In this document: positions 8,924 to 37,281 of the stretch, in pieces
How the letters are laid out: every line of letters begins with the position of its first letter
How positions within the stretch are numbered: position 1 is the stretch's first letter
DNA from: Candidatus Moraniibacteriota bacterium
GTDB taxonomy: Bacteria; Patescibacteriota; Minisyncoccia; Moranbacterales; UBA1568
Direction: 5' to 3'
DNA length: 42,416 nucleotides
Assembly (NCBI GenBank): GCA_030648835.1
Contig: JAUSGT010000002.1
Span: 155,665-198,080 of the forward strand
The notes under the pieces: generated by a model
The model's input: only the letters and a program-made list of their open reading frames with translations
The model's database searches: none
Told to the model about the DNA's origin: nothing
Program-made: the position numbers and the translations under genes

Positions 8924-8965
8924 GGTCCTGATAAAGAATTTGCGAGTATAGTACCCGCCTTCGTT

Positions 8966-8998
8966 CTTTGGACTACGGGCGGGCAGGCAATGGTAGTA
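8966..8998 (+). repeat. conserved tRNA-Gly leader core, copy 2
   Basis: CTTTGGACTACGGGCGGGCAGGCAATGGTAGTA matches 1129-1161 at 30 of 33 positions. It ends 1 nt before the tRNA. Confidence 0.8.
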
Positions 8999-8999
8999 A

Positions 9000-9070
9000 G
9001 CGGGTATAGTATAGTGGTAATACGTGACCTTCCCAAGGTTAAGCGAGGGGTTCGATTCCCCTTACCCGCT
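9000..9070 (+). tRNA. tRNA-Gly (anticodon CCC)
   Basis: 71-nt cloverleaf. Acceptor GCGGGTA/TACCCGC, D arm GTAT-AGTGGTA-ATAC, anticodon arm TGACC-TTCCCAA-GGTTA, T arm AGGGG-TTCGATT-CCCCT. Confidence 0.9.
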
Positions 9071-14415: not shown

Positions 14416-14670
14416 ATGGCAAAGAAGCAAATAGAGGCGGTAGCGGATGCGCTCAAGGAAAAGGTGATGGCGCAGGTAGACAAGAGCAAGATTTTGGCCG
14501 TAAAGGAAGTGGCCAAAGTGAAGAAACAACTCGCCAGTACCTACGCGACGGTGGAGAGTTATGCCAAGAAGAATCCGGAGAAGGCTGCTATGGTGGCTGC
14601 CGGTATCGGTGCCGCTTTGGGTGCTGCGATTTCTTTGCTTGTGAGCGGCGGGAAGAAGGGGAAGAAGTAA
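14416..14670 (+). CDS. DUF883 (YqjD/ElaB-like) tail-anchored protein
   Basis: Helical Lys/Glu-rich N-terminal part. The C-terminal KKNPEKAAMVAAGIGAALGAAISLLV resembles the conserved ..NPW.a.g.aAgvG.llG.Ll anchor of ElaB/YqjD. Confidence 0.65.
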   Translation: MAKKQIEAVADALKEKVMAQVDKSKILAVKEVAKVKKQLASTYATVESYAKKNPEKAAMVAAGIGAALGAAISLLVSGGKKGKK

Positions 14671-14690: not shown

Positions 14691-14722
14691 AAAAAAATCC
14701 CGCCAGAGTGGCGGGCTTTTTT
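14691..14722. terminator. bidirectional rho-independent terminator
   Basis: AAAAAAA-TCCCGCCA-GAG-TGGCGGG-C-TTTTTT. Confidence 0.8.
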
Positions 14723-14780
14723 CTAAAATTCAACAAACAAAAGAATTTTTTGTCTTAATTTCACCTCTCGTTTTTCTAAT

Positions 14781-14930
14781 AATCCTTCCTTGCAAGCAAC
14801 CTTCCCGGGGGCCGTTCCGTTCATCCAGCGATGAACTCCACTTATGAACTTTTTTTGATCCGTCGATACAACGGCACCATGCTCAAAAAAACTTCAACTC
14901 TCCCAGGAAGATTCTTGCTACGGAAGGATT
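14781..14930 (-). ncRNA. candidate structured RNA, copy A (inverted homologue of 36562-36713)
   Basis: By hand alignment, 126 of 140 alignable positions are identical to copy B. All helix substitutions are compensated or G-U compatible on this strand. A TATAAT box lies on the minus strand at 14952-14947. See findings. Confidence 0.6.
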
Positions 14931-14971
14931 CTTAGCTTTTTGTGGAATTATACAGGGTGTATACTATTTTT

Positions 14972-25892: not shown

Positions 25893-25918
25893 GATAATTG
25901 ATAAGGGATAATTGATAA
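25893..25918 (+). repeat. 26-nt GATAATTGATAAG-type word repeat, copy 1
   Basis: GATAATTGATAAGGGATAATTGATAA is the exact reverse complement of 30966-30991. Internally it is a 13-nt unit repeated twice. Confidence 0.9.
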
Positions 25919-25984
25919 GAGATAGAGAGTGTGTGAAAGAAAAAATCATGCATCACTTGTCTTGTGTCATGTATCTTTTCCCAT

Positions 25985-30904: not shown

Positions 30905-30965
30905 GAAGATGCAAGATGTTTGATGAGAGATGTACGATGACGAGTCTTCAAATCTCGCATTTCTT

Positions 30966-30991
30966 TTATCAATTATCCCTTATCAATTATC
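30966..30991 (-). repeat. 26-nt GATAATTGATAAG-type word repeat, copy 2 (inverted)
   Basis: TTATCAATTATCCCTTATCAATTATC is the exact reverse complement of 25893-25918. It lies between ssb and rpsR. Confidence 0.9.
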
Positions 30992-36298: not shown

Positions 36299-36326
36299 TT
36301 GACTTTTTCTTCTTTATTGCTACACT
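36299..36326 (+). promoter_or_regulatory. sigma70-like promoter TTGACT-16-TACACT with no CDS downstream
   Basis: TTGACT 36299-36304 and TACACT 36321-36326. The hexamers and spacing are the same style as the promoter at 203-230. Confidence 0.6.
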
Positions 36327-36332
36327 AAACTG

Positions 36333-36513
36333 TCGTTAAAAAAATGAGTTGTGCCGGTTTCCGGTTTCTATCCGTAGGAGGGAGGAGGGCATCCCTCCTA
36401 GTCATCCTCCCTTGAAATGTATGGAACTCGATTTTTCGAGTCTCTATCGCCTGCGGATGGAAACCCGATATCAGCCACAAAAACAAGACCACCCTTTTGG
36501 TGGTTTTTGTTTT
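36333..36513 (+). ncRNA. candidate ~180-nt small RNA bounded by a promoter and a terminator
   Basis: A 16-bp helix joins 36363-36378 to 36450-36465, with two U-G pairs valid only on the plus strand. An outer 5-bp helix is TTGTG/CACAA. Apical hairpins are AGGAGGG-CAT-CCCTCCT and ACTCGA-TTTT-TCGAGT. The terminator is ACCACC-CTTTT-GGTGGT plus T-run (36488-36513). Confidence 0.55.
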
Positions 36514-36561: not shown

Positions 36562-36713
36562 AGCCTCCCGTAGCAAGAATCTTCCCGGGAGAGTTGAAGT
36601 TTTTTTGAGCACGGTGCCGTCTCTTCAGAGACGGATCAAAAAAAGTTCATAAGAGAAGTCCGACGCTGGTCGGACGAACGGCCCCCGGGGAGGTTGCTTG
36701 CAAGGGAGGATAA
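36562..36713 (+). ncRNA. candidate structured RNA, copy B (inverted homologue of 14781-14930)
   Basis: Helices are P1 36564-36569/36704-36709 and P1b-P2 36573-36589/36684-36701. P3 is 36596-36608/36636-36648, P4 36617-36634 and P5 36658-36675. Covariation with copy A is described in findings. Confidence 0.6.
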
Positions 36714-36735: not shown

Positions 36736-37281
36736 TTATGTGTCTAGCCGATGCAGAATTTTTTCTTTGACTTGCGGAAAAAGTTTTTGGAGCGCTGTAA
36801 GTTCCTCAGGAGAGAAATTTTGCAGAACAAAATCATGGGCGGAAATACAGGCGCCAGGATCACCAGCGGGATGACCGATGCCGAGGCGAATGCGGAAGAA
36901 ATCCTGAGTTCCGAGCTTGCCGATAATATCTTGGACACCGTTGTGTCCGGCGCTTCGTGAAGAGAGAGTCGTTTTGAAAGTTCCCGGAGCGATATCCAAA
37001 TCGTCATGAATAACGATGATGTCCTGGGGCAAGAGCTTGTAGAAGTTGATAAGTGTTTGTACCGCAGTGCCGGAAGCATTCATGAAGGTGTCCGGTTTCA
37101 CAAGAAGCACTTTTCCTTTGCCAATTGTGCCGGAACTCAAACTGGCTGACATTTTTTTGTCCGGAGTGAAAGCCGCAAACCCCCATTCTTTTTGTAGGAA
37201 GTCCGCGCACAAAAACCCCGCGTTGTGGCGATTATGTGCATATTGTGGACCTGGGTTTCCTAAACCGATAATGATCTTCAT
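36736..37281 (-). CDS. pth: peptidyl-tRNA hydrolase
   Basis: MKIIIGLGNPGPQYAHNRHNAGF.., ..HDDLD.. and ..GHNG. are canonical Pth motifs. Confidence 0.93.
   Translation of the reverse strand: MKIIIGLGNPGPQYAHNRHNAGFLCADFLQKEWGFAAFTPDKKMSASLSSGTIGKGKVLLVKPDTFMNASGTAVQTLINFYKLLPQDIIVIHDDLDIAPGTFKTTLSSRSAGHNGVQDIIGKLGTQDFFRIRLGIGHPAGDPGACISAHDFVLQNFSPEELTALQKLFPQVKEKILHRLDT

Follow-up and report, generated by a model that had tools for sequence, protein, structure and literature searches.

A 42,416-nucleotide stretch of a Candidatus Moraniibacteriota contig (hereafter the window) contains two similar non-coding segments in inverted orientation, copy A at 14781-14930 on the minus strand and copy B at 36562-36713 on the plus strand. 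The initial annotation, made from the letters alone, interpreted them as a candidate uncharacterised structured RNA family in which pairing rather than sequence appears to be under selection. The locus raises two questions, namely whether the copies indeed belong to such a family and, if so, what kind of unit the RNA constitutes.

Two inverted copies in the window and their shared fold

A repeat search returned copies A and B as the longest inverted repeats of the window, with arms at 14871-14930/36561-36620 (93%), 14803-14864/36630-36691 (79%), and 14779-14817/36676-36714 (92%). Global alignment of the two copies, including the apical segment, gave 129 identities, 19 mismatches, and 6 gap columns, which is consistent with the 126 of 140 identical positions plus a replaced apex counted originally. 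A model search with all filters off detected no third copy, and the 42 kb therefore hold exactly two.

Both copies are predicted to adopt the same three-way-junction hairpin. The minimum free energies were -74.6 kcal/mol for copy B and -69.6 kcal/mol for copy A, corresponding to z scores of -6.9 and -6.6 relative to dinucleotide shuffles, and none of 200 shuffles folded as stably as either copy. The differences between the copies that had been described as compensatory can be read directly in the sequence. The outer helix P1 is CCTCCC/GGGAGG in copy B and CCTTCC/GGAAGG in copy A, which amounts to one compensated pair, while P2 contains two toggles between Watson-Crick and G-U pairs. The side hairpin P5 (GTCCGAC-GCTG-GTCGGAC versus GTTCATC-GCTG-GATGAAC) carries three compensated pairs around an invariant loop, and the apical hairpin P4 retains its pairing with a replaced sequence. 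For P3, the proposed pairing of the T7 run with the A7 run stands, and the homologues described below refine it to UGAA/UUCA, a 1x1 mismatch, and U7GA/UCA7. In the homologue alignment this helix is followed, below P4, by an 8-nt/1-nt internal loop (GCAYGGUK opposite A). Most members extend P2 by a further two pairs, where the window copies carry an A-C mismatch. The features of the two copies are as follows.

14781-14930, minus strand: copy A, type 1 (see below); covariance-model core 14919-14791, 138.3 bits, E 3.8e-32
14927-14922 with 14789-14784, minus strand: P1 of copy A, CCTTCC paired with GGAAGG, from the sequence
36562-36713, plus strand: copy B, type 1; covariance-model core 36572-36702, 145.8 bits, E 4.4e-34
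36564-36589, plus strand: 5' strand of the copy B closing helix (P1 36564-36569, P1b 36573-36577, P2 36578-36589), pairing with 36684-36709 by fold and covariation
36684-36709, plus strand: 3' strand of the copy B closing helix (P2 36684-36695, bulged G 36696, P1b 36697-36701, P1 36704-36709), by fold and covariation
36595-36649, plus strand: P3-P4 arm of copy B, by fold and covariation of helices 2 and 3
36595-36608 with 36636-36649, plus strand: P3 of copy B, UGAA and U7GA paired with UCA7 and UUCA
36609-36616, plus strand: conserved internal loop GCACGGUG of copy B
36617-36634, plus strand: variable P4 hairpin of copy B
36650-36683, plus strand: junctions and P5 of copy B, by fold and covariation of helix 4
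36650-36657 and 36676-36683, plus strand: junctions UAAGAGAA and GAACGGCC of copy B
36658-36675, plus strand: P5 hairpin of copy B, GUCCGAC-GCUG-GUCGGAC

A structured RNA family of Candidatus Moranbacteria

The first homologues came from synteny around pth, where locus L004 carries a full copy, L002 a divergent copy, and L009 a mosaic, while L003 and L005 have none. A degenerate pattern run over 185,579 species genomes yielded 24 stretches, and a broader pattern run over a metagenome collection yielded 74. An nhmmer profile matched 10 of the 24 genome-scan stretches, nine of them in Moranbacteria/Patescibacteria MAGs and one in L021. We then used a covariance model based on 12 seeds and a hand-specified structure, which leaves P1 outside. 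Among the pattern-scan loci of genomes and metagenomes, it produced 79 matches, 60 of them distinct, with scores of 42-146 bits. The model found nothing in 38 pattern-matched loci (14 from the genome scan, 23 from the metagenome scan, and 1 viral), which were consequently rejected as chance matches.

All named sources of the matches are Candidatus Moranbacteria, except for one MAG labelled Bdellovibrionales (L021). Its sequence is almost identical to that of a Moranbacteria contig, and the MAG is probably misbinned. Thus, as far as sampled, the family is restricted to Candidatus Moranbacteria within the Patescibacteria. Homologues of the pth gene assign the window itself to Candidatus Moranbacteria/Moraniibacteriota, which belongs to the Parcubacteria group.

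We compared the element with described RNA families. At gathering score, Rfam 15 recognised two tRNAs and nothing else in the whole window. At E <= 10, the two copies gave terminator-driven noise outside the element and CRISPR-DR15 at 15 bits, far from its gathering score of 36. Eighteen further loci with about 25 members gave tRNAs only. BLASTN of copy B against plasmids and phages returned no match, and a pattern scan of 2.9 million viral contigs gave the single chance match rejected by the model. Literature searches on CPR non-coding RNA, CPR 6S RNA, and Moranbacteria RNA motifs offered nothing relevant. With no Rfam family, nothing found in the literature, and a distinct architecture, the family matches no described RNA class.

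The consensus begins with a closing helix of ~27-31 bp, consisting of a variable P1 of 5-18 bp followed by P1b and P2 with its bulged G, and continues with a short 5' junction of 5-6 nt. The A/U-rich P3 arm has the consensus UGAA/UUCA, a 1x1 mismatch, and U6-7(C/U)GA / UC(G/A)A6-7, followed by the conserved internal loop GAGCAYGGUK, in which GCAYGGUK faces a single A. P4 is a variable apical hairpin that accommodates inserts of up to ~50 nt. The 7-bp hairpin P5, with the loop (C)GCUG(G), is preceded by the junction UAAGAGAA and followed by the junction GAAYGGCU. About 40 unpaired nucleotides are invariant; the loops and junctions hardly change at all, while the helices vary by compensatory change.

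Standard pairs occupy 95.7% of the 2423 helix cells in the model alignment, as compared to 33-57% when the partners are slid by 1-3 columns. Double changes occur in 37 of 42 pairs, and the observed values were reached by 0 of 500 shuffles. Helix 1 shows double changes in 16 of its 17 pairs and is 96.6% paired, and in helix 4 (P5) all 7 pairs have them. An alignment made with MAFFT only gave a similar picture, with 94.5% paired versus 40-61%, and 13 covarying pairs versus 3-9. P1, which lies outside the model, forms in all 56 complete members; flanks combined with their own partner reach -10.4 kcal/mol, as compared to -4.8 kcal/mol for mismatched flanks (p = 1e-16). The outer 10 nt of the P1 strand are 36% identical between members, against 64% in the inner stem, and they nevertheless keep their complementarity. 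Among unpaired columns, a search for pseudoknot or tertiary covariation recovered the 2-bp extension of P2 only, the remainder being subtype-driven noise. The 60 distinct homologues thus retain all helices with abundant compensatory change, which bears out both the proposed RNA family and the proposed selection on pairing over sequence.

The data also support the functional strand assigned originally, that is, 36562 to 36713 (plus) and 14930 to 14781 (minus). Helix positions contain 110 G-U as compared to 33 A-C combinations, and folding favours the named strand over the complementary one in 56 of 56 members, with a mean difference of 13.2 kcal/mol. A promoter scan was not decisive, as -10-like boxes precede the sense and antisense strands with equal frequency; the strand, ends, and processing of the putative transcript are those that we infer from the structure model.

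Orthologous copies also proved to be better conserved than their surroundings. The copy in the atpA-atpG spacer is 98% identical between two genomes, in which third codon positions of atpG are 69% identical. The corresponding values are 79% versus 46% at the Ctp locus and 77% versus 56% at the pth locus. Orthologous copies at 77-98% next to third codon positions at 46-69% indicate purifying selection on the element. Covariation, the constraint on orthologous copies, and the strand-specific structure exclude chance or a neutral recent duplication. The family shows compensatory change beyond shuffled and slid controls, combined with strand asymmetry, as is generic for conserved structured RNAs. 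Homologues exist, their substitutions leave the helices intact, and no Rfam family matches either window copy at gathering score or at E <= 10. Together, these data confirm that the two window copies are paralogous members of a previously undescribed structured RNA family.

Subtypes, genomic contexts, and turnover

The family comprises three subtypes. Both window copies are of type 1, in which the helix is followed by A-rich or mixed sequence with no U-tract. Type 2 has a different closing-helix sequence bounded by AAAACC...GGUUUU and, unlike type 1, ends in GGUUUU; often a terminator lies ~25 nt after it. In the low-scoring type 3, another pairing sequence replaces the U-run/A-run helix. Genomes carry at least 1-4 observed copies, with a maximum of four in one MAG, and the copies differ by 10-40%. 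Types 2 and 1 also occur as divergent head-to-head pairs, ~45 nt apart and with a conserved spacer motif (L017, L032, L041, L047, L074, and L102).

The neighbours are unrelated housekeeping genes, including those for Ctp protease, ABC-F ATPase, a glycosyltransferase, a P-type ATPase, a DEAD-box helicase, Fmt, UvrA, RecO, and pth/L25. Clustering of 258 neighbouring proteins yielded several syntenic housekeeping groups only, with no linked partner gene and no transposase. The gaps to the flanking gene ends are mostly 15-50 nt, and in L033 the element fills the whole spacer between two convergent genes. Of 50 downstream genes, 34 are encoded opposite to the element and 16 on its strand; among copies with co-directional flanks, 23 are antisense and 12 sense. 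A near-absolute orientation rule was thus discarded, since de-duplication reduced it to about 2:1.

Two type 3 copies lie in sense orientation within one atp operon, 19-32 nt from atpA/atpG and atpD/atpC. The copy between atpA and atpG recurs in a second genome (L051 and L111 both have it), and the atp operons of four other Moranbacteria loci (L113-L116) are free of the element. Unrelated long hairpins were also seen in atp spacers of related Moranbacteria, at L116 3320-3482 and 5897-6000 and at L111 4368-4523 (z = -3.7 to -5.2), one of which resembles an insertion when compared with L051. It may be a general trait of this lineage that spacers contain structured inserts.

Copy A lies between an 84-aa glycine-zipper gene (14416-14670, plus strand) and an Amidase_2 gene (from about 14942/14971, plus strand). 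The TATAAT box that had been noted at 14952-14947 on the minus strand is present and really forms part of an extended box, TGTATAAT, at 14954-14947. Three features accompany this copy.

14947-14954, minus strand: extended -10-like box TGTATAAT, a candidate promoter by consensus match only
14699-14715, both strands: bidirectional intrinsic-terminator-like hairpin (CCCGCCACTCTGGCGGG, with A-run and T-run flanks), from a terminator scan
14716-14780, minus strand: possible 3' extension of the copy A transcript from element to terminator, a weak assignment made by eye

The box ends 11 nt before the folded base of the outer helix and 16 nt before 14930, and its score in the promoter scan is the second best among family members. 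On the minus strand the hairpin follows copy A at a distance of 65 nt, and on the plus strand it closes the 84-aa gene. Within the 14716-14780 region, the motif ACAAAAAATTCTTTTGTTTGTTGAAT was found again after the L046 member, where overall identity is low. With its box and downstream terminator, copy A looks like an independent gene. A stand-alone sRNA gene, as this copy appears to be, represents only one of several contexts of the family.

Copy B is located between the genes for ribosomal protein L25 (35436-36179, plus strand) and peptidyl-tRNA hydrolase, pth (36736-37281, minus strand), and is directly preceded by a promoter-plus-terminator unit at 36299-36512. This unit is a separate structured sRNA candidate on the plus strand. 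It shows a promoter-like TTGACT-16-TGCTACACT (36299-36326) and an intrinsic terminator (36485-36507), and the predicted RNA of ~180 nt has a 28-bp closing helix and two hairpins, one of which exposes the loop GGCAUCCCUCCUAG with an anti-Shine-Dalgarno-like CCUCC. The candidate is conserved between pth and L25 in L002, L003, L005, and L009, with 15 covarying pairs, and has no match in Rfam. Homology between it (36333-36512) and the element was rejected (8.8 bits). We also observed that the public short-read assembly contig L001 (Logan SRR13727527), which stems from the organism of the window, breaks off within copy B, 56 nt beyond pth; this break is consistent with a repeat that disrupts assemblies, and copy numbers in MAGs are therefore probably underestimated.

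Comparison of orthologous sites revealed remnants and type swaps, which point to turnover. At the pth locus, L003 retains only a 16-nt stub, and L004 combines a decayed copy in the orientation of the window with a complete copy reversed. In L002 and L086, a type 1 stub is followed by a complete type 2. In L009 (10664-10816), the P3-P4 arm points the opposite way to the closing helix and P5, with the result that the model matches both strands, and the locus additionally contains a 3'-end remnant in opposite orientation and a type 2-like 5' start. This arrangement suggests recombination between inverted copies. At the ABC-F locus, where the proteins are 97% identical, one genome has type 1 and the other type 2. 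Comparison of L086 1100-1180 with L095 2654-2810, both downstream of ABC-F, shows a type 1 with an insert in the P4 region in one of the two genomes and a type 2 with a type 1 5' stub in the other. The locus represents a subtype replacement between closely related genomes. The idea that P1 arose by insertion into a pre-existing terminator loop was unsupported at the pth locus.

Possible roles of the element

Considering family, structure, and mechanism as a whole, we favour the reading that the element is a novel, selectively maintained, context-independent RNA module, to which we assign a probability of roughly 0.6. In its detailed form, the proposal is that of a self-insulating module with an insulating or processing stem and a partner-binding head, active wherever it is transcribed; this wording is tentative, and we rate it at somewhat less than an even chance. 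Transcription would start from the module's own promoter, as may be the case for copy A with TGTATAAT and the terminator 65 nt downstream, or would occur as part of operon transcripts, as for the atp copies. The long closing helix would let the head fold independently of flanking RNA and would be long enough to act as a stem for double-strand-specific (RNase III-type) processing or for protection. The invariant loops and the junction of the head could then be the surface to which a conserved cellular partner, most likely a protein, binds; both RNase III cleavage and protein binding are steps that we purely infer. New copies would arise by duplication and by recombination between copies, while old ones would decay, leaving stubs and subtype swaps. 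Several observations argue against such a module. Many copies lie 15-50 nt from both genes, too close to accommodate a promoter and terminator of their own, and about two thirds are antisense to their neighbours and would need antisense transcription. Clustering of the neighbours gave no linked partner protein gene, and the remnants, the subtype swaps, and the one internally flipped copy are also expected of a selfish repeat.

The element might instead act purely in cis, as a processing site, stabiliser, or terminator between cistrons or in a 3' UTR, with no role in trans, as do REP, ERIC, and Correia hairpins and phage T7 RNase III sites in mRNA. The two sense copies within the atp operon, one of them conserved in a second genome, would fit such a role, as would the predominance of short spacers with 15-50 nt to the gene ends, the L033 element occupying an entire convergent spacer where a terminator is expected, the AAAACC...GGUUUU flanks of type 2, and the other unrelated long hairpins in atp spacers of related genomes. 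The element also shares with REP/BIME sequences and RNase III stems (T7 early mRNA sites and rRNA intervening sequences) a long stem located in transcribed spacers, with the potential for insulation, protection, or cleavage. However, REPs are ~35 nt long and very numerous, and processing stems have no conserved three-way-junction head, whereas here ~40 invariant unpaired nucleotides and a three-way junction exceed what a stabiliser or RNase III site needs. Moreover, although two thirds of the copies run antisense to the adjacent genes, it is always the strand of the element itself on which the structure is optimised, and a canonical terminator separates copy A from the upstream gene. The lack of a U-tract after the type 1 helix and of any scanned terminator at the element ends led us to reject an intrinsic terminator, and the sense copies within the atp operon exclude an efficient terminator role for those copies. 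A riboswitch or cis-regulatory leader was likewise rejected, given the opposite downstream gene in 34 of 50 cases and the unrelated housekeeping neighbours. We therefore regard an exclusively cis-acting role as doubtful. Quite unlikely is a selfish miniature mobile element of the MITE, REP, or PATE kind, whose hairpin would represent terminal inverted repeats and have no RNA function. Several copies per genome in spacers and in either orientation, differences in presence and subtype at the orthologous pth-L25, ABC-F, and atp sites, stubs and mosaics, and the public contig breaking inside copy B would all be expected of it. Transposase-bound inverted repeats have conserved termini, the opposite of what we found, as the P1 termini are the least conserved part (36% identity) and always complementary. 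No target-site duplication is visible at either window copy, where the P1 borders are fuzzy, and no clean empty/filled pair was found. The copies seen number 1-4 per genome (two in the 42 kb, at most four per MAG), no neighbouring transposase suggests an autonomous partner, and plasmids, phages, and the 2.9 million viral contigs gave no copy. Conservation of orthologous copies far exceeds that of synonymous sites, and the G-U pairs are strand-specific. We take the variable yet covarying termini, the low copy number, the constraint, and the strand-specific structure to exclude a MITE of the classical kind. Finally, a single-strand-DNA or replication-oriented (lagging-strand) mechanism was rejected, because copies A and B are opposite on one replichore, with GC skew positive across the window.

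The dispersed intergenic hairpin repeats of enterobacteria (ERIC/IRU) and Neisseria (Correia, NEMIS) provide the closest comparison on this side. Like the element, they are 100-160 nt long, form a long imperfect RNA hairpin, sit in spacers in either orientation, are co-transcribed with their neighbours, and vary in presence at orthologous sites. They have conserved terminal inverted repeats, target duplications (Correia), and tens to hundreds of copies, with no elaborate conserved head, whereas the element combines variable covarying termini, 1-4 copies, a conserved three-way junction, and strong purifying selection. A divergent 6S-like RNA, that is, a rod-shaped regulator that mimics an open promoter and in this way binds RNA polymerase holoenzyme, would account for the size of ~150 nt, the long closing helix and terminal stem, the weakly paired, asymmetric A/U-rich centre with its 3'-side hairpin, and the one to few copies per genome (Bacillus has two 6S paralogues), and copy A resembles an independent gene. 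We nevertheless consider it very unlikely, as RF00013 gives no match even at E <= 10, the 5' strand of the would-be bubble is only 5-6 nt long where a large single-stranded stretch of 10 nt or more is expected, P3 is a real covarying helix, and genomes contain operon-embedded, intercistronic copies and up to four copies in three subtypes. A new self-cleaving class dispersed in spacers would fit the pattern, typical of small ribozymes, of stems that covary freely alongside unchanging junction and internal-loop nucleotides and of multiple scattered copies, some of them intercistronic. This explanation appears highly improbable, since the element resembles no ribozyme family in Rfam, shows no pseudoknot or tertiary covariation, has a 30-bp closing helix that is unusual for small ribozymes, and gives no indication of a cleavage site.

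Returning to the context-independent RNA module, its function, once known, may resemble a known kind, for example a dispersed hairpin element or a protein-binding sRNA. As a discovery, it is comparable to the orphan motifs raiA, ROOL, and OLE, which were likewise defined by covariation and conserved loops, are lineage-restricted, and had no known function at the time. The element has no similarity to them in Rfam 15 and, unlike most motifs of this type, is multi-copy, forms divergent pairs, and occurs inside operons. A bolder version appears unlikely: an autonomous module, either a self-cleaving ribozyme or a ribonucleoprotein RNA released by RNase III, would spread by recombination, be expressed both alone and from operons, and belong to a CPR-specific RNA-based regulatory or processing system with no described counterpart.

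Patescibacteria (CPR), which have tiny genomes, account for a large part of bacterial diversity, and to our knowledge almost none of their non-coding RNAs have been studied experimentally. That several copies are kept in such genomes, with a complex fold and conservation beyond that of synonymous sites, argues for an important role. The evidence for a real, constrained, lineage-specific RNA in this under-studied superphylum is unusually strong, and the consensus, the covariance model, and the 60 sequences are enough for an Rfam entry, metatranscriptome mining, and biochemistry. The unusual mix of stand-alone gene, divergent pairs, intercistronic insert, remnants, and subtype swaps may reveal how reduced genomes gain, duplicate, and replace structured RNAs.

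Two other repeats were noted in the window. One is a 30-nt inverted repeat (GATAATTGATAAGGGATAATTGATAAGAGA, 97% complementary) at 25893-25922 and 30962-30991, 5 kb apart, with one arm between ftsK and a rodZ-like gene and the other between ssb and rpsR; each arm contains two copies of GATAATTGATAAG, possibly an operator. The other is a 45-nt direct repeat, 82% identical, at 1117-1161 and 8954-8998. It ends ~10 nt and 2 nt before tRNA-Gly genes (TCC at 1171 and CCC at 9000) and is probably a common tRNA promoter or leader.
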